Positions 16,992 through 34,589 of a stretch of DNA of 41,951 nt are shown here, one piece after another. Position numbers and translations under genes: made by a program. Origin of the DNA: Syntrophobacteraceae bacterium (lineage in GTDB: Bacteria > Desulfobacterota > Syntrophobacteria > Syntrophobacterales > Syntrophobacteraceae); NCBI GenBank assembly GCA_029974695.1, contig JARKQW010000140.1, forward strand, positions 1 to 41,951, read 5' to 3'. The notes beneath the pieces were generated by a model. The model was not told where the DNA came from. It saw nothing but the letters and a program-made list of their open reading frames with translations, and did not search any database. Numbering within the stretch: position 1 is the stretch's first letter; the number at the start of each line of letters is the position of its first letter.

Positions 16992-18635
16992 ATGGAGACT
17001 GCTTTCCGGCAGGAGACTCCGGGCCTGGGCAAAGAAGCAAGGCGCGGTGGAGAGGGGACATTCGAGATGGAGATTCCTTCCTCGAAGGATGAGCGCAGCT
17101 CCAACCCTAGAAAGACCAGACCCGTCCTGGTCATGGGCGCAACGGGATACATCGGGGGCCGCCTGGTGCCGTTGCTTCTCGAGTTGGGATACACGGTGCG
17201 GGTGATGGGACGGTCTTTGCCCAAGCTGGAATCGCGGCCCTGGGCAACTCATCCGAGGCTCGAAGCGGTGCAGGGGGACGTGCTGGACATCCACTCCCTC
17301 AAGAAGGCGGTTCAAGGGTGTTGGGCGGCTTTTTACCTGGTCCACTCCATGAACACGTCCACCAGTGATTTCAGCTACTTGGACCGGGTTGCCGCCTGGA
17401 ACATGGTGGAAGCCTCGGGTAGTTCGACCCTCGAGCGCATCATTTACCTCGGGGGGTTGGGGGATGAGAGCGACCCGGCCCTGAGCAAGCACCTCCGTTC
17501 GCGCCTCGAAGTGGCCCGAATTCTGCGCTCCGGGTCCGTCCCGGTCACGACCCTGCGGGCCGCGATGATCCTGGGGTCCGGAAGCGCCTCCTTCGAGATC
17601 CTGCGGTACCTCGTCGACCGGCTCCCCATCATGCTCGCACCCCCCTGGGTGCACACGCCCGTCCAGCCCATCTGCATCCGAAACGTCCTCCATTACCTGG
17701 TGGGCTGCCTGGAACACGATGAAACCGTCGGGCAGGCCTTCGATATCGGAGGACCCGAGATCCTCACGTACGAACAACTGATCAAGATCTATGCCCAGGC
17801 AGCCGGGTTGCGGGAAAGGGTGGTGATTCCCGTTTCTTTCATATCCCCTCGGTGGAGCCCCCTTTGGATCTCCCTGGTGACCCCGGTACCCGCGCCCCTG
17901 GCACGAGCCCTGACCGAAGGGCTCCTGAACAAGGTGGTTTGCCGCGACGAACGCATACGCCGGATCATTCCCCAGGAGTTGATGACCTGCCGACAGGCCA
18001 TCGATCGCGCCATCGAAAAGATCGAGCGGCATCGGGTCGAGGCCTGCTGGACGGATGCGGGCCGACTCCTCCCTCCCGAATGGAGCTACTGCGGAGATGA
18101 GCCTTACGCGGGGGGAACGGTTTTGGCCTGTGCCTATCGGGTGCGGATCAAGGCATCCGCCGGGGAAATCTGGGAGCCCATCGTCCGGATCGGAGGCCAA
18201 ACGGGCTGGTACTACGGCGGGCCCCTGTGGCGAATCCGCGGGTGGTTGAACAAGCTCATCGGGGGGCCCAGCCTCATGCGGGGAAGGCGGGATCCCCGGA
18301 CGCTCTATGTGGGCGATGCCCTGGATTTCTGGCGGGTGCTCGAAGTCTCCGCCCCTTTCCGGCTTCTGCTCCTCTCGGAAATGAAGCTCCCGGGCGAGGC
18401 GATCCTCGAGTTCACCATCTCTCCCGGGGGACAGGGGGAATGCGAGCTCCGGCAGGTTGCGCGCTTTCTGCCCAGGGGCACCGTCGGGCTTCTCTACTGG
18501 TACAGCCTGTACGGCGCTCACCAGTTGCTCTTCAAGGGAATGCTTCGCACCATTGCCCGAGAGGTTGGAAAGCCAATCGTGAAAGGACCCGAGCGGTTCG
18601 AACCCCGGTTGGATCTGGTCTGTCGGATCGACTGA
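16992..18635 (+). CDS. NAD(P)-binding SDR/NmrA-like protein with C-terminal DUF2867-like domain
   Basis: Rossmann motif VLVMGATGYIGGRLV. The C-terminal WRVLEV...LLLLSEMKLPGEAILEF...LYWYSLYGAHQLLFKGML is typical of DUF2867. An alternative in-frame ATG at 17067 sits in a duplicated initiation region. Confidence 0.85.
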   Translation: METAFRQETPGLGKEARRGGEGTFEMEIPSSKDERSSNPRKTRPVLVMGATGYIGGRLVPLLLELGYTVRVMGRSLPKLESRPWATHPRLEAVQGDVLDIHSLKKAVQGCWAAFYLVHSMNTSTSDFSYLDRVAAWNMVEASGSSTLERIIYLGGLGDESDPALSKHLRSRLEVARILRSGSVPVTTLRAAMILGSGSASFEILRYLVDRLPIMLAPPWVHTPVQPICIRNVLHYLVGCLEHDETVGQAFDIGGPEILTYEQLIKIYAQAAGLRERVVIPVSFISPRWSPLWISLVTPVPAPLARALTEGLLNKVVCRDERIRRIIPQELMTCRQAIDRAIEKIERHRVEACWTDAGRLLPPEWSYCGDEPYAGGTVLACAYRVRIKASAGEIWEPIVRIGGQTGWYYGGPLWRIRGWLNKLIGGPSLMRGRRDPRTLYVGDALDFWRVLEVSAPFRLLLLSEMKLPGEAILEFTISPGGQGECELRQVARFLPRGTVGLLYWYSLYGAHQLLFKGMLRTIAREVGKPIVKGPERFEPRLDLVCRID

Positions 18636-19051
18636 TCCTCCGGGTGCCTCGATGCCGAAGGTCCCGAAGGGGCGGCAGCCAAGGCCGCGGACGCCGTCCC
18701 GAGATTCAGCGGGCGATAAGGATGTGCCGGCGGCAAGCGGGCGGGGCACCCCGGGAGGCGACATGGGTCGGCCTCAACGTCCCCGACACCTGCCGAAACT
18801 CCCTCTCCGGAAAACGCCCGGCACGATCGAGGATGTGCTTGACGGGAGCTTCGGCCCAAAGTATCAGAGTCAGTGCTTTCGTTCCGTACCACACAGACCC
18901 CCCGAGGGGGAGGGCGTTTCCGCATCCCCTCCCCCGCTTGTCTCCTAACAGCAACCGTACCGATCCGAAAAATTCTCCTTTTTTTCGAGTCGTCTCGGGA
19001 GCGTTGTCCCTTCTTACGGCCACACACTGCGAAGCAGCCAAAGGATGATCT

Positions 19052-22000
19052 ATGAGCCCCATGACGCTGGAACAGTTGAAAGGGAGAATGGCGGACAACC
19101 GCGAATTCCAGGACTATTTGAAGTGGCAGGAAAGCCGGTCGGGCCGGAAGATCCTGGACGACGTGGCCCTGCTGAGGGCCTACCAGGGGTACCTCCTCGA
19201 ACACTTGGGCGATGTCCGGGGCCAGCTCATGGACGAGTCCGACCTTCGCCTCTCCCTGGTGCTGGCCCTCCATTTCAACCCGCTGTTTCAGCAGGAATTC
19301 CGGGCCGGAAATCCCACCCTCGCCCAAAGGTACGACAAGGAAACGGCCGTTCAGAGCTCCGGACCGGTCAACGAGCTCATGGCCCAGGTTTTCAAGCAAT
19401 ATGCGGCCTGGCTGACCCGGGAACTGGACGACACCATGTTCCGGCTCGAGGAGGCCGGGACGGACGAAGTCCTCCAGTACGAGAAACGACGGGCGTTGGA
19501 GCTGCGGTTCGGAAAGCTCTTCGACCGGGAGCTTCGCCTGGCAAAGGAGGAAGGCTACACCCTCCAGCTGGCCGTCCAGGAGAAGGAACAGACCAAGAAG
19601 GAGGTCATGGAGTTCCTCTCCCAGGACGCTTCTTCGCGCGTCACTCGATTTAATTGGGCGATTTTCGGAAACAGCGACAAGACCTCGGCGGGAATCGACC
19701 TCCTCAATCGGGAGATCACACGGTGCAACAGGGTTTCCGGGATCATGCGCGCCATGCTGCCCCGTTACGCCGCTCACCCGAAAAGCCGGGAGATCCTCGA
19801 GACCCAGATCGCCCTGGCCGAATCCCGCCGGACCGAGGCCGAACACTACATCGCCCGGCTCAAGGAGTGCAAGAGGGTCAAGAAGCAGGCCCGGATCTCC
19901 TGGCAGGAGAAGACGGCGGAGTCCGAAGCCTTGCTGAAACAGACGGATGTGGAACTCCTCGGCGTGAGTGAGGACCTCCTGCGCGGGGTCCGGCAGGTGG
20001 TTCCGTCCCTGCGGGAACAAGAAGCGCAGATCGGGACTCGCCTCAAGGAACTGGAGAAGACCGTCCGGGAGATTCCCCGTCTCTATGAGGAGCAGGAAAA
20101 GCAGACGAACGAGCTCGTGCGAATCGAGTCCATCCTGGCAGGGGACCCTATCCGGTTGAAGTACCTTGGCAACCTGGGATTCAAGGCCGGCTCCCTCCCG
20201 GCCCTTCGCCGGTCCATCGCCGAGAGGGCCCGGCTCATCGAGGAGACCGAGCTGCGCCAACGGCACCTGAGCGAGGATCTCGCCTTTCTCAATGCCAAGT
20301 ACAACGCCATGTTCGATCGGACGGAAGCGGCCCTCAACGACCAGCAAGAGCTCAATCGGCTTCGGGCCAAGGCCCACGACGAGCTCCAGTGGCTCCAGAG
20401 CCTTCCCCGGATTCACAGGGCCCTCAATGTTTACTGTTCCACGGCCACCGTGACCTTCGAGCTTTTTCTGAGCATCGGCCAGATCGCTGCGGGCCGGGCC
20501 TGCGGTCCCGTCGGGGGGACGGCCGTCGCGGCCATGGGCATCGCCGGCATGCCCATCACCTATGGATTGAGCCTTCCTCTTTCGGGGGCGCTCCTCACCA
20601 ACATACAGCCCTACGACACGGGGCAGCTGGGCATTTCCCTCAAACTGGGCTTCTCCTGGGGTGCGGACTTCCAGCCGGCCACCAAGGACAGCCTGGAAGC
20701 GAGCGTGGGCATGGCCATTGTCTACGATGCGTCCCTCCAGGTGTCCGACACCCGCGGGTTCTCGACGGTGAGCACCATCACCCTGGCTACGACGGCGGAG
20801 GCCGCCATTCCCGGCGCCCTTCGGGCAGCCATCGAGATGGAGCTCATCAAAGAGAAACGGGTGATGACTTTCAAAGATGTCTATCACTGGGCGGCCTGGA
20901 TCGGCCAGAAGTGGGCCAACCTCCGCGCCTGGGCGGTGGCGGCCCGGCTTTACCGGGGAGGAGGGACCTCTCAACCGACGGCGGAGGACCTCAAGCGCCT
21001 TCGGGAAGTTGCCGACATCTCCCTCAAGAACGACAAGCCGACCCGGGACATGCTCGAGAAGGTCTTCAAGTACATGGGGGAACCCATTCTGCGGACGGAG
21101 TGCAAGGAGCTCTTTCCGCACATAGGAGCGGAAATCTCGGCGGCGGAATTCTTCAGTCTCAAAGGAGCCCGGGAGCGCAGGTCCGAGCCCAAGTTCATCC
21201 GGAGGAACAGCGACATCAAGACGGGGGAAGTATACGACGAAGAGAGAAAAGGGGATCAGTGGAGCCGATCTTTGACCGTGGGAGCGGGAATCCAGGTGCA
21301 GGCGGATTATTCCAATGTTGAAAAGGACCCCAATCCCGACAACGTAGGGGAGTCCCTGACCTTCACCATCTCCCTGCCCATATTCGATCAGAATGCCCAA
21401 TGGATCTCGACCCCGGCAATGGATCCCTCGAAGGGGGCCATCGGCACCTGGGTGCAGAGTCACCTGGCGCCTGCGGCCAACAAGATATCGAACTTCACGA
21501 ATCCGGGGGTGTTCAATCTCTTCAAGAGTTCCCTGGCCACGAATCCTTTCCTGAGTCTCAGCACCGGCCTGGCCCTGGGCACCGTCCAGGTAGCCCTCTT
21601 TCTTTCGACCCTCACCAAGCGTCCGGCCCCCGACGGCAAGACCGGCAAATGGGTCCTTTTTTACTGGCGCCCCGTTTTCAGCACGGCCACCGAAATCCAG
21701 AGGACCGTTCCCCTGGGCTACGGGTTCAACATGGTGCTGGGAGGAAGCGTGTCCTTGTCCCGCACCTACCGGGAACAACTGGGGGACAACACCATCGTGT
21801 ACCTCCAGATCGTGTACAACGGTCTCATGAATATCTCCCTGCCCGGCGACGACGGCAATCCCAGACCCCCCGAGGCCCGCGGTCCGGCGCTCTGGAAGGA
21901 ATACGTGGACACGCAAAAGAAGACCATTTGGAGGATGATGCACAACATCACCCTTCCCCATACCTGGATTGCCGCCGAGGTGAATGACCGGGAAGGAGGC

Positions 22001-23698
22001 GCGAAACTCATCGCCGACCTCAAGAGAATCATGCCCGCGCCCGCCCGCCGTTCCTCCAAGGGGCTGCCCTCCCAGCATAAAGCTCCCTACGTGGACGTGG
22101 ACGCCCCGGAGTCCTACCCCGACTTCAGCCAAACGTTGTTTGACAAGGCTTTTGACCCCTTTCAAAGGCACCTCGAAGATTTTCGCAAAAGCGATTACCT
22201 CACCCACAAGAACAAAGACTGGCATCGCATCCCCATCCAGGGAGGCACCTTCAATTGGTCCATGAATCCCATCGTCATTGCCGGGGAACTCTACCGAACC
22301 CACACGACCCAGTACAAGCTCGAGAAGGGCGTGGTGGACGCAAGAACCGCCCTGGGTCATCGAAAGGGGGCCTCCCAACAGGTCCTGGCGGACGTCAAGA
22401 TGGTGCCCGACGAGCAGGCCCCCAACTGCATGTTGTGCGGGGTCGCCTTCAGCTTCATTCGCCGTCGGCATCACTGTCGCGAATGCGGGAAGGTCTTTTG
22501 TGCCGATTGCTCGAGCCACAACATCGAGCTTCCCCACAGGAGCCAATTCAAACCCGTCCGGATCTGCAACACCTGCTATGCGCGGCTCACCGCGGCGCCC
22601 AAGCAGCCTGCCCAGGCCCCGAGCGGCCACAAAGACCCCGGCGCCGCCGACCATGGGGAACCTCTCCCGCAGGTTCGGAGCCCGGTGAGCCAACCCCACA
22701 GGGAAGGCCTCCCCGCAGCGACCCACAGCCCGGTGAGCTCTCCTCAGAAGACGGGGATGTTGACATCGGCCTACGTTTCCTCGCAGGTTCCCGGAAAGGA
22801 AAGCCTGCTCACGTCCTTCCGCCGAAGCCCGGAGGCTCCCAGAGGGGAAAGCCCGCTCTCATCGTCTGGTTCCAACCTGGGCGCCCTCGATCCAGACGGC
22901 GGCAGGGTGCAGGCCCCGGTGGTGCGGGGAGGGGAGGTCCGATCGGAGTGGGGAGAGGGGAAAGACGAAATCACCGTGCTGGACGAGATGGAGCACGAGC
23001 GGTGGTGGAGCACTCGGATCGCCAGGCCCGTTCCCAGCAGCGCGGACCGCCAGGCCTACATCGATTTCGCCGTTTCCGATGCGCAGGCAGCCCAGGCAAT
23101 GAGAGAGGAAAGCCCGGCAAGCCGGGAGGCTCAGAAAAGCAAGGGCAAAATCTCTCCTGGCGGCAGGTCCTCGAGACTGAAAGGAGTGACGGTTGCCGAA
23201 GAAGGAAGGAATCCCATTGTCGGCAAGGAGTTGACCAATTACTTCGACATTACGGATGTCTCGGCGGATGGGAATTGCCTGTTTCGATCCATGGCCGTCG
23301 CTCTGCAAAGGCCCGAGAATCAGCACAAGGCCTATCGGCGCCTGGCGGTGGAACATATCTTCCTGCACCCGGCGGATTTTGAGACCGTGTACCAGGGCAA
23401 CGTCCCGGCCTATCTTTACACCATGTCGGAGACGGCACGGCACCCCGAAGACAAGGCACGGTGGGGTGGTTCCCCGGAAATCCTCGCGCTAAGCCGGATT
23501 CTGAAGCGGGAAATCATCGTCTATGCCTGTACCTTCGATTCCCCCACCGCCTGGGAGCTGAACCGGACGGTCCTGTTCGTGCAACAGCACGCCATGGGTG
23601 ACGGTCCCTTCAAGCCACCCCGGGAGGCGGTCCCCATCTACATCGCAAACCAGGGGGGAAACCACTACGTCTGCCTGAAGCCCAAGGCCCGGCGGTAG
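19052..23698 (+). CDS. 1548-aa multidomain protein: coiled-coil N-terminus, bilobed hydrophobic segment, unknown beta-rich core, FYVE zinc finger, P/S-rich linker, C-terminal OTU cysteine protease
   Basis: ATG 19052 follows AAAGGA. The amino-acid composition is balanced and protein-like (K, N, Y, W, F, I), unlike the 1402-aa antisense ORF, which is G/R/P/L-rich. FYVE: MVPDEQAPNCMLCGVAFSFIRRRHHCRECGKVFCADCS...VRICNTCY. OTU: DVSADGNCLFRSMAVAL ... GGNHYVCL. Confidence 0.9.
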   Translation: MSPMTLEQLKGRMADNREFQDYLKWQESRSGRKILDDVALLRAYQGYLLEHLGDVRGQLMDESDLRLSLVLALHFNPLFQQEFRAGNPTLAQRYDKETAVQSSGPVNELMAQVFKQYAAWLTRELDDTMFRLEEAGTDEVLQYEKRRALELRFGKLFDRELRLAKEEGYTLQLAVQEKEQTKKEVMEFLSQDASSRVTRFNWAIFGNSDKTSAGIDLLNREITRCNRVSGIMRAMLPRYAAHPKSREILETQIALAESRRTEAEHYIARLKECKRVKKQARISWQEKTAESEALLKQTDVELLGVSEDLLRGVRQVVPSLREQEAQIGTRLKELEKTVREIPRLYEEQEKQTNELVRIESILAGDPIRLKYLGNLGFKAGSLPALRRSIAERARLIEETELRQRHLSEDLAFLNAKYNAMFDRTEAALNDQQELNRLRAKAHDELQWLQSLPRIHRALNVYCSTATVTFELFLSIGQIAAGRACGPVGGTAVAAMGIAGMPITYGLSLPLSGALLTNIQPYDTGQLGISLKLGFSWGADFQPATKDSLEASVGMAIVYDASLQVSDTRGFSTVSTITLATTAEAAIPGALRAAIEMELIKEKRVMTFKDVYHWAAWIGQKWANLRAWAVAARLYRGGGTSQPTAEDLKRLREVADISLKNDKPTRDMLEKVFKYMGEPILRTECKELFPHIGAEISAAEFFSLKGARERRSEPKFIRRNSDIKTGEVYDEERKGDQWSRSLTVGAGIQVQADYSNVEKDPNPDNVGESLTFTISLPIFDQNAQWISTPAMDPSKGAIGTWVQSHLAPAANKISNFTNPGVFNLFKSSLATNPFLSLSTGLALGTVQVALFLSTLTKRPAPDGKTGKWVLFYWRPVFSTATEIQRTVPLGYGFNMVLGGSVSLSRTYREQLGDNTIVYLQIVYNGLMNISLPGDDGNPRPPEARGPALWKEYVDTQKKTIWRMMHNITLPHTWIAAEVNDREGGAKLIADLKRIMPAPARRSSKGLPSQHKAPYVDVDAPESYPDFSQTLFDKAFDPFQRHLEDFRKSDYLTHKNKDWHRIPIQGGTFNWSMNPIVIAGELYRTHTTQYKLEKGVVDARTALGHRKGASQQVLADVKMVPDEQAPNCMLCGVAFSFIRRRHHCRECGKVFCADCSSHNIELPHRSQFKPVRICNTCYARLTAAPKQPAQAPSGHKDPGAADHGEPLPQVRSPVSQPHREGLPAATHSPVSSPQKTGMLTSAYVSSQVPGKESLLTSFRRSPEAPRGESPLSSSGSNLGALDPDGGRVQAPVVRGGEVRSEWGEGKDEITVLDEMEHERWWSTRIARPVPSSADRQAYIDFAVSDAQAAQAMREESPASREAQKSKGKISPGGRSSRLKGVTVAEEGRNPIVGKELTNYFDITDVSADGNCLFRSMAVALQRPENQHKAYRRLAVEHIFLHPADFETVYQGNVPAYLYTMSETARHPEDKARWGGSPEILALSRILKREIIVYACTFDSPTAWELNRTVLFVQQHAMGDGPFKPPREAVPIYIANQGGNHYVCLKPKARR

Positions 23699-23916
23699 AA
23701 TCGTTGCGCCCGCTACCAGAAACATCCCGGGTCGAGGGGGGTTGGGACTGGTCCACAAATTCAGGGCATGGTAGGGATCGGTCCTCCGGGAAACGGTTGA
23801 GAGCAAGGGCCCGAACCTAGGGCCGGCTCAACGGAAGAGGTGGAGAAAGGAACCGGCACGGGGTTGCCGCGGATGATTCCCTGGATTGAGCGATTTGGCC
23901 GGCACGCATCCCGTTT

Positions 23917-23945
23917 CGTCATTCCCGCGGACAAACGGGAATCCC
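23917..23945. repeat. REP-type hairpin (same family as 6955..7024)
   Basis: CGTC-ATTCCCG-CGGACAAA-CGGGAAT-CCC. It shares the CGTCATTCCCnCG...CGGGAAT core with the reverse complement of 7001..7024. Confidence 0.5.
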
Positions 23946-24065
23946 TGAAAGGCGTGCATACCCTCCGGGTGCTGGGTGCCGGCCTGCGTGGACCTGACGA
24001 GGGGATGGTCTCGGAATCGCTCAAATCAGGGATTCGCCATGCGTGCCGGATTTGGTCGTGAACCG

Positions 24066-25331
24066 ATGGCGAGAACCATGAAGAAAGAAAATACGGAACC
24101 CGCTTCCCCGGGGAACCTCCGGGAATCTCCCGGTCTGAAATGGATCGTCTTCTCCCTGGTTTGTGCGGCGTTTACCACCGTTTATATCACCCAGCCCGTA
24201 CTGCCCGTGATCCGGGCAGAATTTCACGTGAGTGAGACTCGGGCCTCCTGGACCATCGCCGCGGTCGTCCTGGGAATGGCCCTCTCCAACCTGCCTTTCG
24301 GGATGCTCTCCGACCGATATCCCCTGCGGCCGATCATTCTGACCGGCGGCGCAACGGTGGCCTCGGCCGGGTTCCTTTGCGCCGCGACTTCGAGCCTGGC
24401 GGTGCTCGTGGGCGCCCGATTTGTCCAGGGCCTTTTTCTTCCCTCACTCACCACCTGCCTGGCCGCGTACCTGGCCCGCAGTCTTCCGCCCGCATCCCTC
24501 AACGTGGTCATGGGTACCTACGTGTCGGCGACGGTGGCCGGAGGGTTGGGGGGCCGTCTTCTCGGCGGCTGGATTCATCCTCCCCTCCACTGGCGGTTCG
24601 CATTCGTGAGCGCCTCTCTCATGCTCCTGGGGGCGACCCTTGCGGCGGTGAAGCGACTGCCGGGCAACGGGCCCGTTCGTCCCGCGGATACCCCTGCCGC
24701 AGGGTTCCTTCGGTTGCTTTCCCGAAAAGAGTTTCTCCGGACCTACCTGGTGGCGTTTGGAGGGTTCTTTGCCTTCTCGTCCGTCTTCAATTATCTGCCC
24801 TTTTATCTTTCGGGGTCCCCTTTCGGGGCTTCCACCGAGCTCATTACGCTACTGTATCTTTCCTACACTGTGGGGATGGTGGTCGGTCCCCTGGCAGGTA
24901 AGGTCAGCAACTCCATCGGCAACGGCAACACCATGATCCTGGGTGCCGGCATCTTGGGCCTTTCCATCGTCGCGACCCTCATTCCGTCCCTGCTGCTCAT
25001 CATCGTGAGCCTTGTGGGAATCTGCATCGGGTTTTTCGCCGTCCATGCCTCGGCTGCCGGCTCTCTGAACCGCAAGTTGACCGGAAACCAGGGCAGAGCC
25101 AATTCCCTCTACGTCCTGTTTTATTACCTGGGGGGAGCGGTAGGAATCTACCTGAGCGGTCACGCATACGCGTTGTGGGGATGGGCCGGTGTGGTCGGGG
25201 TGACCGTGTCGATGCTCGTGATTCCTCTGGCAACGGGGGCTGCGGAAAGGAGAGAGGTAGGGAGAGCCCTGAGAAAGGCGGGTCCGTTGTGGATGCGTTC
25301 GGTCCAGGGGAGCGGGCTTCGGAAGCGGTAG
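24066..25331 (+). CDS. MFS transporter
   Basis: About 12 predicted TM segments. The loop motif GMLSDRYPLRPI is typical of MFS. The start is uncertain: ATG 24066 (MARTMKKEN), 24039 or 23976. Confidence 0.85.
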   Translation: MARTMKKENTEPASPGNLRESPGLKWIVFSLVCAAFTTVYITQPVLPVIRAEFHVSETRASWTIAAVVLGMALSNLPFGMLSDRYPLRPIILTGGATVASAGFLCAATSSLAVLVGARFVQGLFLPSLTTCLAAYLARSLPPASLNVVMGTYVSATVAGGLGGRLLGGWIHPPLHWRFAFVSASLMLLGATLAAVKRLPGNGPVRPADTPAAGFLRLLSRKEFLRTYLVAFGGFFAFSSVFNYLPFYLSGSPFGASTELITLLYLSYTVGMVVGPLAGKVSNSIGNGNTMILGAGILGLSIVATLIPSLLLIIVSLVGICIGFFAVHASAAGSLNRKLTGNQGRANSLYVLFYYLGGAVGIYLSGHAYALWGWAGVVGVTVSMLVIPLATGAAERREVGRALRKAGPLWMRSVQGSGLRKR

Positions 25332-25429
25332 AATTTTACGGAGTCCTCGGGCAACAGCCTAAGGGCCGCCACTTCGCCCGGGGGTCCCCGCACCCCGGGA
25401 CGAAGCGGAGTTCCGGCACGAAGGATCTG

Positions 25430-25834
25430 TCACGCGTCGGTAAGGTTAAGAACCGGGACCCGGAAAGCGTAGTTGTCCCGGTAATAACGGAACCGGTATT
25501 CTTCCGGGATCTTGGGCCGAAAGGGGTTGGTAGCGTTCTGTTCGGTCTCATCCGCTGCGAGGAAGAGAGCCGGGTTTTCCAGGGTCCCTCGGGCGGAGGT
25601 TGTTCCGGGAAAAGGGGTCCCCAGGGCGAGACTCAACGCCAGGACCGCCAACCCGAGGCCCAGCCTTCGCAGCAGGGCACTCAGCCGTTGACGGACCGAG
25701 GTCTTTTCTTCGTGGGTCTCGTGCACTCGGGAGTTCCGGCACCCCTGAAGCTTTCCGGATCCCAGGTTTCTCCACGGGGTCGATTCCCGGACTGAGAGCG
25801 TCTTTCGAATCAGTGTGCTCAGGATTCCCAGCAT
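25430..25834 (-). CDS. Hypothetical single-pass membrane/exported protein
   Basis: ATG 25834 has a strong SD (CCAAGGAGAACGACC-ATG). Central hydrophobic helix LGLGLAVLALSLALG. The C-terminus has non-degenerate composition (NPFRPKIPEEYRFRYYRDNYAFRVPVLNL). Confidence 0.5.
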   Translation of the reverse strand: MLGILSTLIRKTLSVRESTPWRNLGSGKLQGCRNSRVHETHEEKTSVRQRLSALLRRLGLGLAVLALSLALGTPFPGTTSARGTLENPALFLAADETEQNATNPFRPKIPEEYRFRYYRDNYAFRVPVLNLTDA

Positions 25835-26418
25835 GGTCGTTCTCCTTGGCTGTAGGATGTTCGTTCCTTGCGGAGGTTTCCCGGAGGCCCTGTTTCAGGA
25901 CTGCGAGACGGCAGGTTCCTTCGGCAGATTCCTCTTTTCAAGCTAGAACGTGCAGGGTTGGTGTCAAGGAACCGGGCCTTCGAGGGGCCCGGCCGGGTGG
26001 GAGCGGGTCTCTCATGACCGTATTCCCCTGGGATTCCCGGCCCGGTGGGATTCCCGGCCCGGACACGGCCCATGGCGGTCGTTCACCGAAGACTTTGATT
26101 CCCGACGCACAGGGGTCCGGTTTTTGCCTGGCTCATCCTTGCCGGGTCTGATATCCTGATTGCGTCCGCCCCTGCTCTGGGTGGTTTTCCCATAGAACCC
26201 GTTTCCGGATCCTCGAGGGTCCCCGCTTGGAAATGGGCCCGGCATGCCGGTTCGGGGCATTCAGGGACGTTCTTCTTCGGAGAGTGGTCCTTCCGCCATG
26301 GGCCCGCCGGACACGAGCCTCACCGTGGGCGGCATCCTTTCGCAGAAGAGGCGTCGAGATGGGTTTTGCCGGGGAACCGGACAACGATGGACGGACCTCG
26401 TGTCAGGGAGGAAGAGTG

Positions 26419-27615
26419 ATGCAGGTTTTCACTGTGGTTTGCCTGTTTGCGTTCACGGTGTTCGCTCCTGCCGTGTCTTGGGCAACTTCCCCCCGCTCGC
26501 CGGATCTGGGTTCTGCGGTGTCGGGGACGATCAAGATCGGAGGAGCCTTCTCTCTGACGGGGGGCGGTGCTGCCCTGGACCTCGAGGCGGCCGACGGGGC
26601 CAGGTTGGCCTTGACGGAGATCAACAGGGCCGGGAAGACCCTGGGCAAGACTATGGAACTGGTAATCCGGGACAGTCAATCCCGTCCGGACCTGGCGGAA
26701 CAGATCGCCCGACAGTTGGTGGAGAAGGATCGCGTGGTCGCCATCCTGGGATACAGCGACACCGATTCCGCATTGGCCGTAGGGCCGGTCATCCGGAAAC
26801 ACAGGATCCCCTTCATCACGGTGGGAGCGACCTCCCCCAAACTTCCCGAGCAGGTGGGAGAAATGATGTTCCTGGCATGTTTCGGCGACAACGTGCAGGC
26901 GGCGGCGGGAGCCGAGTTCGCCTTCAAACACCTGGGTGGCGGCGCTTGCCTCCTTTGGGACAAAGGGATGGACTACACTCGCCTTCTGGCCGGGTATTTC
27001 AAGCGCCGGTTCATTGAGCTGGGGGGCAGCGTTGTGATCGAGGAGCCCTTCGACGATGAAACGTCGGATTTATCCGTCCAGATTCAGCAATTGAAATCCC
27101 TGCCCCGGTCCCCGGATTTTTTTTACATAGCCGCCATGCCCTACAATGCCGGGATGGTGATTCGGCAGTTGCGGGAGGCCGGGTTTTCGGCCCCCGTCCT
27201 GGGAGGCGATGGGTTTGACACACCTCAAATCGTAGAGATTGCCGGACCTGCGGCCGAGCGGGTGTTCTTCACCACCCATGCGCTGGTGGACCCCACCCGG
27301 GGAAAAGAGGAAATGAAGAGGTTCATCACGGCCTTCATGGCGGAGTATGGGCGGGAACCCCGGAATTCCTTTGCGGCCCTGGGATACGATGCCATGCGCC
27401 TGGTGGTGGACGCCGTCCGTCGAGCGGGTTCCACGGAGCCCAGCTCCCTGAAGCACGCCCTGGAGGAAACCAGGGAGTTTTCGGGGCTTACCGGGACGAT
27501 CACCCTGAGCACAAAGTCCCACATTCCCCAAAAATCCGTTACCATCCTCGAGATCAAGGACGGCAAATTCCGCTGGGTGGAAGATCTCGTTCCCCAGTCG
27601 GTCCCTTCTCCGTAG
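26419..27615 (+). CDS. ABC-type substrate-binding protein, LivJ/LivK (Peripla_BP_6) family; orphan
   Basis: ATG 26419 follows GGGAGGAAGAG. Signal peptide MQVFTVVCLFAFTVFAPAVSWA. IKIGGAFSLTGGGAALD and GYSDTDSALAV are typical of the family. No cognate permease or ATPase genes are adjacent. Confidence 0.85.
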   Translation: MQVFTVVCLFAFTVFAPAVSWATSPRSPDLGSAVSGTIKIGGAFSLTGGGAALDLEAADGARLALTEINRAGKTLGKTMELVIRDSQSRPDLAEQIARQLVEKDRVVAILGYSDTDSALAVGPVIRKHRIPFITVGATSPKLPEQVGEMMFLACFGDNVQAAAGAEFAFKHLGGGACLLWDKGMDYTRLLAGYFKRRFIELGGSVVIEEPFDDETSDLSVQIQQLKSLPRSPDFFYIAAMPYNAGMVIRQLREAGFSAPVLGGDGFDTPQIVEIAGPAAERVFFTTHALVDPTRGKEEMKRFITAFMAEYGREPRNSFAALGYDAMRLVVDAVRRAGSTEPSSLKHALEETREFSGLTGTITLSTKSHIPQKSVTILEIKDGKFRWVEDLVPQSVPSP

Positions 27616-27773
27616 GCTGGAAGGCCGGGGGCCAGGGGCTTTAGGCTAGAGGCCGGGAAGCGAGAAGGCACGTGGGGCGGGCTGCGCTTCGCTCCACCCA
27701 CCCTACCTCCCGGCCGGTCTCGCCCCATGCCCCTGTCGTGTCCTGCCGCCCGGCAGGCCCGGATCTAGGGCGT

Positions 27774-28166
27774 TCAGTACTCCCGGGCGCCCTTGCCCGT
27801 AAGCCAGGGGGTAACGGGCAGGTTGAAGTGGCTGATGGTGGAAACCAGCTCGATCCAGTTTTTGAACTCCTTTTCTTCCCGGAGGATCAAGACCACGCCC
27901 GGCGTCTTTCCCGCTCGCATTCCGTGGACGAGTGCCCTGCCCAAAGCGCGGTCCCAATGGGCGGCGAAGGAAAACTCGACGGCATGAGTCTCCGTCACGC
28001 AGTGGGCCCGCCCTCCGCCCGGGAGAAGCACGTCGGTTCGGCCTCCGTGTTCCGCACACCACGAGTCCCGAAAGGGTTTTTCCGGATCGACGTTCTTGGC
28101 AAAGCCCGCTCCCTGGGAGAAAAGGAGGATGACCCACAGGAGCAGGAAGATCGATTTGTATGCCAT
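27774..28166 (-). CDS. Hypothetical exported protein
   Basis: Signal peptide MAYKSIFLLLWVILLFSQGAGFA from ATG 28166; the track start 28172 is TTG. I recognise no family. Confidence 0.55.
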   Translation of the reverse strand: MAYKSIFLLLWVILLFSQGAGFAKNVDPEKPFRDSWCAEHGGRTDVLLPGGGRAHCVTETHAVEFSFAAHWDRALGRALVHGMRAGKTPGVVLILREEKEFKNWIELVSTISHFNLPVTPWLTGKGAREY

Positions 28167-28367
28167 GGCCAAAGGGTTTCCTTTTCTTTGAGGACCGGCG
28201 TTTCCGGAGTACGGTTGCGGGGGACGCTTCGGGTCCTTGGATGGTCCGTCCTGGTTAGCGCTTTACAAAAACCGTCAACGGATTTAATTATGAAACGTCT
28301 TATTAGCAAGAGTTGAGAGCAGGAAAGAGAATGGACGCCTTCATTCCTTAATGGCAGGAGCAGACCG

Positions 28368-29033
28368 ATGAGAATGACCGCAACAAGTCCTAATTGGAAG
28401 GTGTTGGGGCTCTTGGTGGTGGTGTTTGCCGTGGGAGCCTGCGCGGCGAACGGTCCGTACTACACCGTTTCGGAGACGCCTTCGGCCCCTCCCCCGCCGC
28501 CCGCAACGACCGTCGCCCCCCCGCCCGTGTCGACGGGTCTTGCGGTGGGGCGCAATGAATTCAACTACAGCTTCGACCTGATCGATCGGACTCCCTTCAA
28601 TATCGTAGACCTGCCCCGTTCCCTGGATATTCTCTACCGGAAGGGCTACGACGAGGTTCGCCAGAGGGGACAGGCGGACCTGGTCGTTACGGTCACCCTT
28701 TCCGCCGGGGCGGCGGAGAATCCTGAGAAGAGAGTAGGCCATGCGGTGGGTGGAGCCTTGGGAGGGGCCGCCATCGGTGCCATCATCGGAGGAGCCCTGG
28801 GAGATCCCGGGACGGGGGCCGCCTTGGGTGCAGCCAGCGGAGGCGCAGCGGGGGCCCTGGCACCGGCCGCCGATTACATGGTGAGAATCGACGTGGAAGT
28901 ATACAGTAGGGAGTTGGGCAGGAGCACCTACGAAAGCCGGACCATCAACGTGTCCCGTATTCCCCCCCACGCCGTGCCGGGGGTTGTGGACCAGGAAGTC
29001 TCCGCCATCTTCCGAAGCCTGCCCGATCGTTAG
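28368..29033 (+). CDS. Probable lipoprotein with glycine-zipper segment
   Basis: Signal plus lipobox-like LLVVVFAVGAC. Pro-rich spacer. Glycine zipper GGALGGAAIGAIIGGALGDPGTGAALGAASGGAAGA. Confidence 0.7.
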   Translation: MRMTATSPNWKVLGLLVVVFAVGACAANGPYYTVSETPSAPPPPPATTVAPPPVSTGLAVGRNEFNYSFDLIDRTPFNIVDLPRSLDILYRKGYDEVRQRGQADLVVTVTLSAGAAENPEKRVGHAVGGALGGAAIGAIIGGALGDPGTGAALGAASGGAAGALAPAADYMVRIDVEVYSRELGRSTYESRTINVSRIPPHAVPGVVDQEVSAIFRSLPDR

Positions 29034-29067
29034 CATTCTCGTCCCTTTCCTGCATTCTCTTCTTATG

Positions 29068-29108
29068 GAAAAGCACGGGCTCTGCCGGGTCCCGTGCTTT
29101 TCGTCCTT
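29068..29108. terminator. Hairpin terminator between convergent genes
   Basis: 11-bp perfect stem AAAAGCACGGG (29069..29079) / CCCGTGCTTTT (29091..29101) with an 11-nt loop, followed by a T-rich tract CGTCCTTTT. Confidence 0.5.
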
Positions 29109-29113
29109 TTGGG

Positions 29114-30175
29114 TCAGGACTCCTCCACAATTCCGTTCTTCAGGTCGTGCAGGGTGTGAATGGGCAGGACCAGGGGGGTCTTGCGCACGGGCTCATAGGC
29201 GTATCGATAAGAGGTCCCCGAGTTCCCTTGTGCCCGCATAACGGCCCAGCCCCGGAGCAAATAAGGGCACGAATCATTGAAACAGATGTAGACAAATTCA
29301 ATGTCCCAGTTGCTGAAGGGACTGACGGGAAACCTCCATTTCTTGAGGCCGGAACCGCAGTGCGGGCATGTCCGCCACTCTCCTGCAACCCGCTCGGCCG
29401 GCGTTGCGCACGCAGCAGGAGGTTCTTCCTCCAGTTGCTCCGGTGCGGGCCGCTCTCTTCTCCCCGAGGAAGATCCCTCTTTTTCCGCGTAGACGGCAAA
29501 GACGGGGTCGCTGGGAATGCCCAGGTGGGCGTACTTGTCGTCGGAGGGGCGGGGTTTTCCGCTGGATTCGAAATGGCGAGGCTCTAGAAAGCCCGGAGTG
29601 GTTCGAAAGAAATCCAGGACCAGACGGAGTCGTTCCTCTTCGGTGGAATTCTTCCAGATCCGGGTGGCCTTTTCGGGGAACATCCGGTTGGAAAAGATCA
29701 CCAGGAACAGTCCGCGGGGCTTGAGAACCCGGTTGACTTCCGCGAACACTTCCCGGGGCTTCACGAGGTAGTCCACGGACACCGTGTTGAGGACCACGTC
29801 GAAGGTGTCCGAGGGGAACGGCAGAGAGGGATCCATGTTGAGATCGTGGAGGACCCATTCGGTGAGGCGCTGGTTTGCCGCCAGTTCGTTGGGATTCAGC
29901 CCCAGTCCCACGGTCCTCGAAGGGTGCATTGTTTCGGGGAGATGGGAGTCCCAACCGGCCATGAGGTCCAGGATGGTCGGCGAATCCTCCACCACCAGCC
30001 GACCGATGATCCTCCGGACGGTGGACAGGGCAAGGGAATCCAGGTGGGAGACGAAGCGGTCCCGGGCGTAAAAGAGGGAATCGGGGGATTCGTCAAGCCG
30101 GGAGAAAGCGTCCGGGGGGAATCCGTTGTGGTTCGTGCGGGGCTCCGGTGCCGATGTCGTATCGTTCATAGTCAT
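29114..30175 (-). CDS. Class I SAM-dependent methyltransferase with C-terminal 4-Cys zinc-ribbon-like extension
   Basis: ILDLMAGWDS (motif I-like), FDVVLNTVSVDYL, LKPRGLFLVIFSN. C-terminal CPHCGSG...CFNDSCPY. Confidence 0.8.
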   Translation of the reverse strand: MTMNDTTSAPEPRTNHNGFPPDAFSRLDESPDSLFYARDRFVSHLDSLALSTVRRIIGRLVVEDSPTILDLMAGWDSHLPETMHPSRTVGLGLNPNELAANQRLTEWVLHDLNMDPSLPFPSDTFDVVLNTVSVDYLVKPREVFAEVNRVLKPRGLFLVIFSNRMFPEKATRIWKNSTEEERLRLVLDFFRTTPGFLEPRHFESSGKPRPSDDKYAHLGIPSDPVFAVYAEKEGSSSGRRERPAPEQLEEEPPAACATPAERVAGEWRTCPHCGSGLKKWRFPVSPFSNWDIEFVYICFNDSCPYLLRGWAVMRAQGNSGTSYRYAYEPVRKTPLVLPIHTLHDLKNGIVEES

Positions 30176-30420
30176 CCTCCATAAAAAAAGCCGAGTTTCT
30201 AAACCCGGCTCGTGGCCCCATTTCTGGGCAGGTTTGCGTGGATTCTTCCAATTTTGGCTTTACTTAATTCCTGCAGGGGAAATGTCAAGGAGGGGAAGAC
30301 GGGGGTCCCGGTTTTTGGGGGCCTACGGGCGCAGGAAGGGTCGGGGGGGCTGCACGGGAGACGTCCCATCGATTCCGGTCTTTGGACTCGATGGGAAGGC
30401 GGACCGGCGACTTGCCCCGG

Positions 30421-30870
30421 CTACTCCACCGACAGGAAATGAGAACTGAGTGCGCCGTCGAGAAGCTGGAAAGACCGAACGCGGATGGGAAGGACCCGGG
30501 CGGCCGGGTGATGAATCAGCCCCCGGATATGGGGGTGCACCTCGAGCATGTTGTCGAGGATGGCCGCTTCCAGACGTTCATCTTCCAGGGGTGAATAGGT
30601 GCCGGTCACGGTGAGGGCCTGGATCCGGGACGGGTCCCCCGGGGTTTGGGTACGGCTGTCCACGAGCAGGCTCACTTGGGGGTTCAGAGAAATGTTTTGA
30701 AATTTTCGAGTGTTGGCTAGAGTTACCAGGTAGATCACCCGTGCGTCTTCCCCACAGAGGTAGGCCATGAGCGAACAGTGGGGCCTGTTTTCGTGACAGG
30801 TGGCAAGGACGCACAAGCGGTTGTCCCGGAGAAGCCCTTTCATTCGCTCGATCAACGGTTCTTCAGCCAT
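30421..30870 (-). CDS. Pyridoxamine 5'-phosphate oxidase-like FMN-binding family protein
   Basis: Lies in ORF 30421..30954. ATG 30870 (MAEEPLIERMKGLL) follows AAGAAGGG. LCVLATCHENRPHCSLMAY and NPQVSLLVD are typical of the PNPOx-like split barrel. Confidence 0.7.
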   Translation of the reverse strand: MAEEPLIERMKGLLRDNRLCVLATCHENRPHCSLMAYLCGEDARVIYLVTLANTRKFQNISLNPQVSLLVDSRTQTPGDPSRIQALTVTGTYSPLEDERLEAAILDNMLEVHPHIRGLIHHPAARVLPIRVRSFQLLDGALSSHFLSVE

Positions 30871-30988
30871 GGTACCCTTCTTCCGCGGATTCAAGCCTCC
30901 CGCGGTGTGGGACCGCGCAGGAAGTTTGCTGAAGTTAGGCAGGCCTGAATCCAAGTTCTTTTCAATGGACCAATGTCGGTAGGGCCTG

Positions 30989-31339
30989 TTATTTGGGGAC
31001 CGCTGTGGACTGAGGACCCCCCTTTGGATCGTCTTTCGTTCCCATGGTAGGAGTCCCTTCCTTCTTCTCCGTCATGGGGGCTTTGGGCGCTTCGGTTCCC
31101 TCTTTGGGTTTCACGGTCTGGTCTGCTTCTCCGGCGTCCTTGGTGCCTCTTCCGGGCGTGCCTTCGCGTTTTTCCTTCATTTCGGGCGTGGCTTGCTCGG
31201 ACTTGTCGGGCTTGACGGTCTGGTCTGCTTCGCCGGCGGCTTTGGTGCCCTTGGTCGGCGTTTGGGCCATGACCTGGCTCGCTACAAACATGCAGCAAAT
31301 AGCAAGAACGAGTGCGATCAGAATCCTGGACTTCCTCAT
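30989..31339 (-). CDS. Small secreted low-complexity protein with internal tandem repeat
   Basis: Strong SD AAGGAGGGTTC-ATG. Signal peptide MRKSRILIALVLAICCMFVASQVMA. Repeat GTKxAGEADQTVKP occurs twice; the nucleotide repeat GGTCTGGTCTGCTTC is at about 31106 and 31218. Confidence 0.7.
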   Translation of the reverse strand: MRKSRILIALVLAICCMFVASQVMAQTPTKGTKAAGEADQTVKPDKSEQATPEMKEKREGTPGRGTKDAGEADQTVKPKEGTEAPKAPMTEKKEGTPTMGTKDDPKGGPQSTAVPK

Positions 31340-31677
31340 GAACCCTCCTTATCGAACAACTAGGCCTTGCCTAACTTCAGCCGATCAGAAATGTGGTGCC
31401 TTGCAGTCAAGAAGATGGTTTGTGTGAAATGATATGCTCGATACAGGGGGAAATTCTAGTGATCTTGCAGGAAAACACAATGAAATTCTGAAGGGTGGAA
31501 TCAAGAAGCTGCACCGGACCCGGGTCCGGCCGGGAAATCGCCTCTTTCCTGTAGCGGCGGGGAGGTGCGGGTGGTCTGCGACCGGCCCCGGAGAGGGTGA
31601 AACCCGGGGATCGGTCCCGGCGGCCGCGCGAAATAGAACTTCGTCCCCGGGACCGACGGCGGACGGTTCCGTTGGTG

Positions 31678-32865
31678 TCAGATGAAGCGCTTGTGGGTTT
31701 CTTTAAGATACTTCTCTTCCAGGAGCAGGGTGATCTTCTTGACGATGTTGCGCCGAATATCGAGCTCGACGGGGAGATTGGGGTCCTGGTGGGCTTCGTT
31801 GACCCGGGTTCCCACCACGAAGAAGATGACGTCGCTGTCCAACAGGATCGAAGCGAGGGTCGTGGCGGCGTTGGACCGCATGAGCTCGGGTTTTTGTCCG
31901 CGTTCCAGGATTTCGGAAACCTTGCTCAGGGTCAGGGTGCCTTCGGTGATGAGGTCGATTCCTTCCATTTCCGAAGAGGGGGGGATCTCGGGATCCAGGT
32001 TCTCGAGGTCCATTTTGATCTCCCGGTCCAGTTCCCGTCCGACGATGGAAGCGGTGGTCCCGCCGCAAATGACGATCCGTCCGGTGAAGGAACGCACCAG
32101 GTTGGCCAGTTCGGCGTCCTTGGATTCGGAAAACGGGGGACCCGTAAGGACCAAGAGGGTTCGTGGGTGTCGCAGGTACATGACCCCGCAGGAGATGTCG
32201 TCCTTGGGTTCATAGGCATCGATTTGTCGGGCGCGGAGGGCAATCTTCATGGCCAGTTGACGGGAGGAGATGCCGTCCTGCCAACTGATCCACTTGAGGG
32301 CCTGTTCGATGACCCGCCTTCGTCCCCAGCCGATAGGATAATCCGGCCTCCCCATGCCCGCCTGACTGACGCCGTCGGAGAAGAAAAGGACCCGGTCTCC
32401 TATGTGCAGGTCGAACTCGGAAAAAACCACCTCCCGGTCGTGCCACCTCTCGAGATGGATGGGGGTCTTGGGGACGGAGACGGGTTCTCCGTCCCTGAGC
32501 AGCACGTATTCCGGGTTGCCGTGCTCGATGATGCGGGCGTGCCCGATGCTGTTGACGTCCACGATGGTGAAGGTGGAATAGCTGATCATGCGCACTTTGC
32601 ATACCGGAAGGGTGTCCATGATCACCTCGGCCGTCTCCCGCACATCGGCGTAATTCGAAATATACTTGATGGCCATGGTGGCCGTGAGGGTAGCCAGGAC
32701 ATTGGCCTTGACGCCGCTGCCCAGGCCGTCCGAGAGTACGGCGATGACCCGGTTCTCCTCCCGGATCTTCTGCATGAGGAAGACGTCTCCCGCCACGAAT
32801 TGCTTGTTCTTGCAATACTGGTAATGGTCGATGTCCAGGAAGAAATCCCTCGTGGTCTTGATCAT
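31678..32865 (-). CDS. PP2C-type (SpoIIE family) serine phosphatase with extra C-terminal domain
   Basis: VLSDGLGSGVKANV and VLFFSDGV are metal-binding Asp motifs. ATGA overlap with the hydS stop. Confidence 0.85.
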   Translation of the reverse strand: MIKTTRDFFLDIDHYQYCKNKQFVAGDVFLMQKIREENRVIAVLSDGLGSGVKANVLATLTATMAIKYISNYADVRETAEVIMDTLPVCKVRMISYSTFTIVDVNSIGHARIIEHGNPEYVLLRDGEPVSVPKTPIHLERWHDREVVFSEFDLHIGDRVLFFSDGVSQAGMGRPDYPIGWGRRRVIEQALKWISWQDGISSRQLAMKIALRARQIDAYEPKDDISCGVMYLRHPRTLLVLTGPPFSESKDAELANLVRSFTGRIVICGGTTASIVGRELDREIKMDLENLDPEIPPSSEMEGIDLITEGTLTLSKVSEILERGQKPELMRSNAATTLASILLDSDVIFFVVGTRVNEAHQDPNLPVELDIRRNIVKKITLLLEEKYLKETHKRFI

Positions 32866-34583: not shown

Positions 34584-34589
34584 TCCTCT

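Follow-up and report, generated by a model that had tools for sequence, protein, structure and literature searches.

A FYVE zinc finger and a predicted OTU deubiquitinase joined to an undescribed carrier module in a Syntrophobacteraceae protein

What is a FYVE zinc finger, a eukaryotic reader of phosphatidylinositol 3-phosphate (PI3P), doing in a bacterial protein? The question is raised by a 41,951-nucleotide stretch of a Syntrophobacteraceae genome (assembly GCA_029974695.1, contig JARKQW010000140.1; the whole stretch is called the window here), in which positions 22400-22588 of the plus strand encode the 63-residue peptide MVPDEQAPNCMLCGVAFSFIRRRHHCRECGKVFCADCSSHNIELPHRSQFKPVRICNTCYARL. This peptide belongs to a protein of 1548 amino acids (aa) that reads, in order, carrier module, FYVE finger, linker, helical stretch and OTU cysteine protease domain. 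We favor, with a probability of roughly 0.6, the interpretation that the protein is a large modular effector that is injected into eukaryotic cells, docks on PI3P membranes and removes ubiquitin. The gene and its parts are as follows.

19052..23698, plus strand: whole gene, a modular effector candidate, 1548 aa plus stop
19052..20416, plus strand: N-terminal helical and coiled-coil region, aa 1-455, with AlphaFold2 (AF2) helices at aa 6-450
20417..20611, plus strand: Gly/Ala-rich hydrophobic helical segment (FELFLSIGQIAAGRACGPVGGTAVAAMGIAGMPITYGLSLPLSGALL), aa 456-520
20594..22144, plus strand: β-rich conserved carrier core, aa 515-1031, with invariant columns and AF2 β-hairpins
22400-22591, plus strand: FYVE zinc finger, aa 1117-1180, supported by Pfam span, motif register and fold match
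22592..22942, plus strand: low-complexity Ser/Pro/Ala/Gly-rich linker, aa 1181-1297, predicted to be disordered
22943..23221, plus strand: conserved helical region before the OTU domain (DEITVL...WWSTRIARPVPS...YIDF), aa 1298-1390
23222..23695, plus strand: OTU cysteine protease (predicted deubiquitinase) domain, aa 1391-1548

The FYVE finger and its fold

A sequence-only reading of the locus had described the finger as a complete canonical FYVE domain with eight cysteines in four CxxC pairs, and this description holds. The isolated peptide scored 83.2 bits (E 1.4e-23) and the whole 1548-aa protein 77.2 bits against the Pfam FYVE model (PF01363), for which the gathering cutoff is 27.8. The four pairs (C1126/C1129, C1142/C1145, C1150/C1153 and C1172/C1175) have FYVE spacing and align in register with EEA1, and all eight cysteines are invariant among the eight closest homologues. 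The signatures proposed in the same reading (MVPD for WxxD, RRRHHCR, and RIC for RVC) were confirmed residue by residue against EEA1, Lst2 and endofin; in these alignments the eight cysteines, RRHHCR, CG and R-[VI]-C are all in register. The basic pocket motif is intact (R1138-R1139-H1140-H1141-C1142-R1143, then E-C-G). The RVC motif is present as R1170-I-C1172, which retains the arginine and the cysteine and replaces valine conservatively with isoleucine, and the hydrophobic turret loop reads S-F-I. The sole departure from the consensus is in WxxD, where M1117-V-P-D1120 keeps Asp1120 and has methionine for tryptophan. Six of the eight closest homologues have this tryptophan, as do nearly all of the other FYVE domains that we collected from bacteria.

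We considered whether the segment is better described as a RING, PHD or zinc-ribbon domain, and it is not. Only FYVE exceeded its Pfam cutoff; the FYVE_CARP1-2, FYVE_2, IBR, B-box and zinc-ribbon models all scored below their own cutoffs on the finger segment. A phmmer search of all PDB sequences returned EEA1 as the best match (68 bits, E 4.5e-18), with further matches to Lst2, endofin/ZFYVE16, Leishmania LM5-1, Vps27, RUFY1, WDFY3 and Hrs. The scores of EEA1, Lst2, endofin, LM5-1 and Vps27 are too alike to single out a donor lineage of the finger. An AlphaFold model of aa 1097-1548 had a mean predicted local distance difference test (pLDDT) score of 39 overall and of about 70 over the finger only. 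When the finger model was searched with Foldseek, every one of the 13 best PDB matches was a FYVE domain, with root-mean-square deviations of 1.6-2.2 Å, and PHD fingers first appeared at an E of about 1. The superposition was closest on endofin (3t7l; 1.6 Å over 63 columns) and Vps27 (1vfy; 1.7 Å), and EEA1 structures with inositol 1,3-bisphosphate fitted at 1.9 Å (1hyi) and 2.2 Å (1joc). The pocket, whose failure to superimpose would have spoken against a FYVE identity, thus appears to coincide with that of known FYVE structures as far as the model goes. We conclude that the segment aa 1117-1180 is a canonical FYVE finger whose PI3P-pocket residues are intact, and we predict that it binds PI3P.

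Compared with EEA1, Hrs/Vps27, endofin/ZFYVE16, Lst2 and RUFY1, the finger has the same fold and family and 48-50% identity over about 63 residues, including the four CxxC pairs, R(R/K)HHCR, the RVC arginine, the WxxD aspartate and a hydrophobic turret loop. It differs from these eukaryotic domains in being bacterial and in its Met for Trp, and neither the carrier nor the OTU domain is present in the eukaryotic matches that we saw. In a set of about 35 FYVE domains from bacteria, the WxxD aspartate, HHCR and CG never vary, and most of the domains also keep the RVC arginine. Because the pocket is conserved while the identity of the attached carrier drops to 23%, the pocket is under selection. 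In one FYVE subfamily of the carrier family, xKHHCR replaces R(R/K)HHCR and the hydrophobic turret loop is longer.

Exchangeable protease tails on a shared carrier

The C-terminal domain matched Pfam OTU (PF02338) over aa 1405-1496 with 48 bits against a cutoff of 23.3. The catalytic motif D1406-G-N-C1409 (nt 23267-23278) aligned with its catalytic-Cys counterpart in OTUD1 and OTUD3, and His1538 in GGNHYV (nt 23654-23671) was assigned as catalytic by motif; neither the Cys nor the His motif varies among homologues. A phmmer search of all PDB chains at E <= 0.01 returned human OTUD1 (E 7.5e-6), OTUD3 and three viral replicase/RNA-dependent RNA polymerase chains only, and no chain named as a Legionella protein matched the OTU domain at this threshold. 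Judged from its sequence, aa 1391-1548 is an OTU papain-like protease with Cys and His motifs, for which deubiquitinase (DUB) activity is predicted. The helical region in front of it contains W1318, W1319 and a P-V-P-S motif that are invariant in OTU-type homologues. Its helices were modeled with low confidence; as an extension of the protease, it may bind the substrate or ubiquitin. The linker between this region and the finger has a pLDDT below 40 and no secondary structure, and it varies in length and sequence between homologues.

The carrier module of about 1100 aa is previously undescribed. Its three parts (aa 1-455, 456-520 and ~515-1031), and thus also the core, had no match in Pfam, NCBIfam or the PDB by sequence or fold, and a profile of 28 carrier sequences retrieved only coiled-coil noise (SMC, moesin, IncA) from PDB sequences. 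NCBIfam has no family for the window protein or for three other bacterial FYVE proteins. The N-terminal region, which matched nothing but coiled-coil noise in Pfam as well, is rich in Leu, Glu and Arg, with very long AF2 helices at aa 243-363 and 381-450, and begins with the motif M..(12)..N..F...L..Y..WL, which is conserved in 28 relatives. The hydrophobic segment that follows has Kyte-Doolittle maxima of 1.3-1.4 at aa 484-497 and is kept in all family members (F469, L471, G476 and G481 are invariant); it is a possible membrane-inserting hairpin. The core is recognized by the motifs YDTG..G.SLKLG.S.G, D.R.F, YHWAAW, NPDN.G, RTY.E.LG.NT..Y...VY.G and RP....G..LW. In a low-confidence AF2 model it forms long β-hairpins at aa 524-607, 703-774 and 836-905. 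A porin-like carrier was considered and is unsupported, as the best Foldseek match, OmpF, was non-significant (E 1.8e-3, TM <0.2).

Relatives of the carrier are more numerous than a word-indexed search indicated. That search retrieved eight clusters only, and when 1.84 billion representative proteins were searched exhaustively with the carrier by phmmer, 46 clusters were retrieved, of which 28 had E<1e-30. Reference genomes added members labeled Syntrophobacter, Syntrophobacteraceae, Desulfobacteraceae and 'delta proteobacterium', as well as Myxococcales-labeled metagenome-assembled genomes (MAGs), and metagenomes added two more. FYVE occupies the same position in about 20 clusters and is lacking in about 24. 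The architecture is kept from 99% down to 23% identity across many independent assemblies.

The tail of most FYVE members is OTU or a divergent OTU-like Cys...His domain. A clan-CE protease stands in the position of OTU in six members (P0005, P0008, L004, L005, P0031 and P0033). A profile of these CE tails matched Orientia OtDUB (E 5e-13) and ChlaDUB2 (E 3e-3), and among four CE members tested, Pfam Peptidase_C48 and RickCE_cat matched all and LupA matched two. P0053, a distant relative without FYVE, carries a USP/UCH domain (aa ~210-520; L025 5879-10690). The enzymatic tail is thus swapped among members, with OTU or clan CE after FYVE and USP in one FYVE-less relative. Our strongest argument for the substrate follows from this exchange: since three unrelated deubiquitinase folds are found on one carrier, the substrate should be ubiquitin or a ubiquitin-like modifier.

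The sequence-only reading had left two ligands for the finger, a eukaryotic membrane or a novel bacterial ligand. A eukaryotic PI3P membrane is made much more likely by three findings: the same chain ends in a predicted OTU deubiquitinase, homologues swap this tail for a clan-CE deubiquitinase related to OtDUB and ChlaDUB2, and relatives adjoin contractile-injection genes, which are described below.

Delivery, target cells and competing explanations

An eCIS_core (DUF4157) domain is present at the N-terminus of three distant relatives only (P0053, P0054 and P0061). According to Geller et al. (2021, PMC8213781), DUF4157 specifically marks extracellular contractile injection systems (eCIS) and stands N-terminal to toxin domains. 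In two metagenomes, P0061 lies directly upstream of genes for an AAA ATPase, Pvc16_N, a phage sheath and two gp19 tube proteins. Its C-terminal 526 residues are homologous to aa 515-1031 of the window protein (hhalign probability 99.5%, E 9e-23). Moreover, FYVE-bearing relatives at three other loci, P0021 (L033), L004 and L005, adjoin a DUF4280 gene, a ClpB/ClpV-type ATPase gene and a gene for a 1198-aa protein (orf1198) that has no PDB relative:

L033 14779-24611: DUF4280/ClpB-ClpV-like/orf1198 cluster, Desulfobacteraceae-type contig
L004 286-3393: the same cluster, Desulfobacteraceae-type contig
L005 2-4120: the same cluster, Desulfobacteraceae-type contig

An IglE_N lipoprotein is visible in the L033 cluster only. 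In Francisella IglG, DUF4280 serves as the PAAR-like domain at the spike tip (PMC5349215), and IglE belongs to the components of the Francisella type VI secretion system (T6SS; PMC5626337). The DUF4280/ClpV-like/IglE-type cluster resembles part of a Francisella-type T6SS in Desulfobacterota. The apparatus genes are 77-87% identical between the L033, L004 and L005 loci, and P0021 is only 24-25% identical to the L004 and L005 family genes. With a conserved apparatus and a divergent family gene, the latter therefore behaves like exchangeable cargo beside a spike gene. Most homologous loci have ordinary metabolic neighbors, and in the 42-kb window tblastn and Pfam searches of the window open reading frames (ORFs) found no homologues of sheath, tube, PAAR-like, ClpV-like or Pvc16 proteins. 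The window protein is not classed as contractile-injection cargo by its gene neighborhood; the link is the homology of its carrier to these relatives. On that homology, delivery of the window protein by contractile injection is a tentative proposal, to which we give slightly less than even odds.

Some relatives carry further features of their own. The USP domain of P0053 sits between eCIS_core and the shared β-core. In P0061, a domain at aa ~330-480 (L030 4433-8065; …VVYHCTDNASAENIIKEG…GPGFYTH…) occupies the same place between eCIS_core and the β-core and could be another toxin module. Immediately 5' of the FYVE-CE gene P0008 is a gene for a 1132-aa protein (L032 6131-9529) with no Pfam match and no similarity to the carrier, which might be a partner or a second effector of P0008.

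In the mechanism that we propose, the protein would be loaded on, or travel with, a contractile injection machine whose genes lie in another part of the genome. After arrival in the cytosol of the target cell, FYVE would dock on a PI3P-rich early endosome, nascent phagosome or autophagosome precursor, and the long coiled coil might oligomerize and so raise avidity. The OTU domain, on a flexible tether of about 120 residues, would then strip ubiquitin from membrane-associated substrates. The outcome would be blunted ubiquitin-dependent sorting, phagosome maturation or xenophagy. The β-rich core could serve in loading, membrane insertion or translocation, or could have a toxic activity of its own. 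The target cells would most plausibly be bacterivorous or host protists of anoxic habitats.

The combination of these activities has a precedent. LotA (Lem21) of Legionella pneumophila, which is delivered through Dot/Icm type IV secretion, has the same logic, with an OTU-class DUB and a PI3P-binding module (the latter predicted in the window protein) in one chain. The OTU domains of LotA are N-terminal and that of the window protein is C-terminal, and LotA has no homologue of the 1100-aa carrier. The PI3P-binding C-terminal region of LotA, which is not termed a FYVE finger, is required for its localization to the vacuole and for ubiquitin removal (PMC7472693). As far as its sequence tells, the window protein is functionally LotA-like and not a member of the Lot family. 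Orientia OtDUB, Chlamydia ChlaDUB1/2, Rickettsia RickCE and Legionella LupA have a CE domain homologous to that of sister members, whereas the window protein itself has OTU, and the producers here are free-living-type Desulfobacterota rather than obligate intracellular pathogens.

Likenesses to injected proteins are also partial. The window protein shares with eCIS toxins (PMC8213781) a modular design with long linkers, and its β-core is homologous to the C-terminal domain of the DUF4157 proteins P0053, P0054 and P0061; it lacks DUF4157 itself, and the window has no eCIS gene. The resemblance to the Francisella T6SS (T6SS-ii) lies in the three FYVE relatives beside DUF4280 and ClpB/ClpV-like genes, with IglE_N in one of them. 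It is limited to a cluster fragment in unrelated organisms, and none of these genes is at the window locus. By analogy, both systems would act on the early, PI3P-stage phagosome. OpiA, an effector of the Francisella T6SS, is a PI3-kinase. A secreted FYVE effector that is active inside a eukaryotic host, PsFYVE1, is known from the oomycete Phytophthora sojae (bioRxiv 10.1101/2021.12.02.470886). Its producer is a eukaryote with its own FYVE repertoire, and it has neither a DUB nor a carrier module.

Several observations weigh against the explanation that we favor. Syntrophobacteraceae are known as free-living syntrophs without any known eukaryotic host or target. The WxxD tryptophan is replaced in the finger of the window protein. 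Pfam found no eCIS_core (DUF4157) in the window protein. Injection-system, PAAR, VgrG and secretion genes are absent from the window and, for most family members, from the sequence within 10 kb of the gene. The L033, L004 and L005 loci come from closely related Desulfobacteraceae-like genomes and represent about one lineage, and their visible sequence contains no sheath, tube or VgrG gene. The structural models are weak as well: the OTU part has a pLDDT below 50, and the carrier model, built from eight sequences, has a pLDDT of 56.

A rival reading is that the protein is an antibacterial contractile-injection toxin or an intracellular bacterial protein. The core would then be the active toxin or the membrane-acting part, FYVE would bind an anionic bacterial lipid or some other ligand than PI3P, and the tails would have bacterial ubiquitin-like conjugates as substrates or be general proteases. 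Antibacterial action is on record for the T6SS and for many eCIS toxins (PMC8213781; PMC5349215), and no association of the producers with eukaryotes is known. About half of the carrier family (~24 clusters) has neither FYVE nor a recognizable DUB, so the core must have a FYVE-independent function, and the xKHHCR motif with the longer turret loop in one subfamily could mean a shifted ligand. However, the window protein and its closest relatives retain the PI3P-contacting signatures. The recruitment of three DUB folds, with the CE type nearest to effector DUBs of obligate intracellular bacteria, also calls for a ubiquitin-type substrate. Furthermore, no conserved small immunity-like gene lies next to the family genes, whose flanks are not syntenic, and Francisella-type (IglE/IglG) systems target eukaryotic host cells (PMC5626337). 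We consider an antibacterial or internal role unlikely. An effector directed at eukaryotes could also travel by a non-contractile route, such as outer-membrane vesicles, a type III or IV system encoded at another place in the genome, or lysis of ingested bacteria within the phagosome followed by self-translocation through the hydrophobic/β-hairpin carrier in the fashion of AB-type toxins. This would agree with the lack of injection genes near the window gene and most relatives, with the absence of an N-terminal signal peptide on inspection of the protein sequence, and with the amphipathic/hydrophobic helical segment, the long β-hairpins and a faint, non-significant pull toward β-barrel porins. 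The only secretion-related neighborhoods in the family are nevertheless contractile-injection ones, and no homology to known translocation domains was detected; such a route seems distinctly improbable.

The FYVE and OTU domains could, finally, be a horizontally captured eukaryotic fragment without adapted function, or the contig could be mis-binned from a eukaryote or giant virus. Some FYVE matches in public 'bacterial' MAGs (Granulicatella and Dehalococcoidia bins) are indeed probable contaminants. The gene studied here, in contrast, is found with typical bacterial neighbors on contigs of 42, 76 and 716 kb, contains no introns, and has a plausible Shine-Dalgarno sequence and a codon-position GC content (0.61/0.445/0.795) equal to that of its neighbors, including the third position. 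The neighboring proteins match NCBI entries named Syntrophobacteraceae bacterium at 90% identity or more. The architecture is conserved along the whole identity range given above with catalytic and pocket residues kept, and no family relatives were found among IMG/VR viral contigs. The claim that the ORF is bacterial is therefore well founded, and contamination and recent unameliorated transfer are effectively refuted by context and conservation. This leaves the non-adapted or mis-binned fragment a negligible probability, and injection of a PI3P-docking deubiquitinase into eukaryotic cells remains the explanation that we prefer.

The locus and other bacterial FYVE proteins

The start of the window protein, MSPMTLEQLK, is common to P0002 and P0004, and AAGGA lies 8 nt upstream. 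The codon-position GC pattern identifies 19052-23698 on the plus strand as the coding strand. A 1402-aa ORF at 18518-22726 (minus strand) and a 1079-aa ORF at 42-3281 (plus strand) have their GC peak at codon position 1 (0.78 and 0.83, respectively), which mirrors the pattern of a true gene on the opposite strand, and were rejected as high-GC antisense artifacts. Other genes in the window encode an SNF2 helicase, a TonB-dependent receptor, periplasmic binding proteins, an ABC ATPase, an NmrA/DUF2867 protein, a major facilitator superfamily (MFS) transporter, a methyltransferase, a PAS-containing [FeFe]-hydrogenase-like sensor, a radical-SAM enzyme, HydF and a histidine kinase. The same gene is present on contigs of 16, 42 and 76 kb, and a 61%-identical orthologue on the 716-kb contig adjoins DsrC and aldehyde oxidoreductase genes. 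The genes flanking it in the window are not conserved beside homologues; an MFS gene lies 3' of both the window gene and P0033, but the two MFS genes are not homologous and the adjacency is coincidental. We found no σ70-like promoter, tRNA or Rfam element around the gene.

A second assembly (L028) is 99.5% identical to window positions 18335-33599 and diverges abruptly inside the NmrA/DUF2867 gene. Where the window continues upstream of 18335, L028 carries a FliJ-like gene (positions 1-792). The break lies upstream of the FYVE gene at a distance of about 700 bp and reflects either a rearrangement between strains or a chimeric assembly. On the minus strand, window positions 31678-37548 hold a regulatory hydrogenase cluster that resembles a HydS-type module for H2 sensing together with its maturases:

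31678-32865, minus strand: SpoIIE/PP2C-type phosphatase
32862-34583, minus strand: PAS-containing [FeFe]-hydrogenase-like sensory protein
34850-36229, minus strand: radical-SAM maturase-like gene
35950-37548, minus strand: HydF

FYVE is rare in bacteria and not unique to this family. When 185,579 species genomes were scanned with a strict motif, about 20 FYVE loci were found, at least two of which look like eukaryotic or viral contamination. The protein at L013 (URWJ01000074.1, a 'Granulicatella sp.' MAG) exceeds 1970 aa, combines FYVE with low-complexity Asn/Ser runs and resembles yeast Fab1/PIKfyve by eye. L011 (PABN01000061.1, a Dehalococcoidia MAG) is an AT-rich contig with FYVE and a PI3/PI4-kinase and has a eukaryotic or giant-virus-like look. 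In the non-contaminant FYVE proteins outside the carrier family, the finger is at or near the C-terminus. Cultured isolates with FYVE are Caballeronia choica LMG 22940, Paraburkholderia sp. UYCP14C, Pseudomonas huaxiensis, Sorangium sp. So ce726 and Roseomonas acroporae. Their proteins and that of an Acetobacteraceae MAG are 330-440 aa long with the finger at the extreme C-terminus, and by eye the Sorangium and Acetobacteraceae proteins have an N-terminal domain in common. A JAMM deubiquitinase suspected by eye in the Caballeronia and Paraburkholderia proteins (HxH...SxxD) had no Pfam or PDB support and was dropped. Among MAGs, a Kuenenia protein fuses a GDSL lipase to FYVE (Pfam-confirmed), a Pirellulales protein has the same C-terminal part, and another Syntrophobacteraceae MAG encodes a calcineurin-like metallophosphatase with two FYVE fingers. 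Beyond the lipase and the metallophosphatase, Pfam recognized no partner domain in the non-contaminant FYVE proteins outside the carrier family. These proteins suggest that the repertoire of PI3P-directed bacterial enzymes may be wider than the carrier family. The genes are located as follows.

L014 9254-10249; L015 9248-10249; L016 8900-10198; L017 8924-10234; L020 ~9500-10234; L008 215-1426: FYVE genes of isolates and of the Acetobacteraceae MAG
L012 1589-3094; L010 6506-7513; L018 8762-10351: enzyme-plus-FYVE fusions in MAGs

The automatic NCBI label of the window protein is 'FYVE zinc finger domain-containing protein'. Our search of full-text literature found no description of bacterial FYVE proteins, although subscription journals were mostly uncovered and this absence is not proof. 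Among effectors, bacterial deubiquitinases anchored to PI3P are already known as a kind; what is new here is the captured eukaryotic reader, the carrier with its connection to contractile injection, and the unexpected lineage. Docking on host phosphoinositides and editing of ubiquitin are a central theme in the biology of Legionella, Chlamydia, Orientia and Francisella. The known examples that we found use bacterial lipid-binding inventions (LotA is the case that we checked), and here it is the eukaryotic PI3P reader itself.

If the proposed model holds, the family would provide a clean case in which a eukaryotic domain was captured and OTU, CE and USP tails were then exchanged like cassettes. 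It would also provide a compact, naturally occurring DUB that is targeted to PI3P, and engineered injection systems would gain a candidate new module for cargo or translocation. For the organisms, it would mean unrecognized predator-prey or symbiotic interactions of Desulfobacterota with anaerobic protists. A broader and rather doubtful extension is that Syntrophobacteraceae, Desulfobacteraceae and the bacterium behind a Myxococcales-labeled MAG inject polymorphic FYVE-anchored deubiquitinases into anaerobic protists and so reprogram the PI3P-stage phagosome or endosome. If this is true, the purpose would be to resist digestion or to establish an intracellular or epibiotic symbiosis, and the β-rich core of the carrier would be a new translocation or membrane-acting fold. 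It would then also reveal a hidden toolkit for interaction with eukaryotes in a bacterial group that is invoked in syntrophy models of eukaryote origins.

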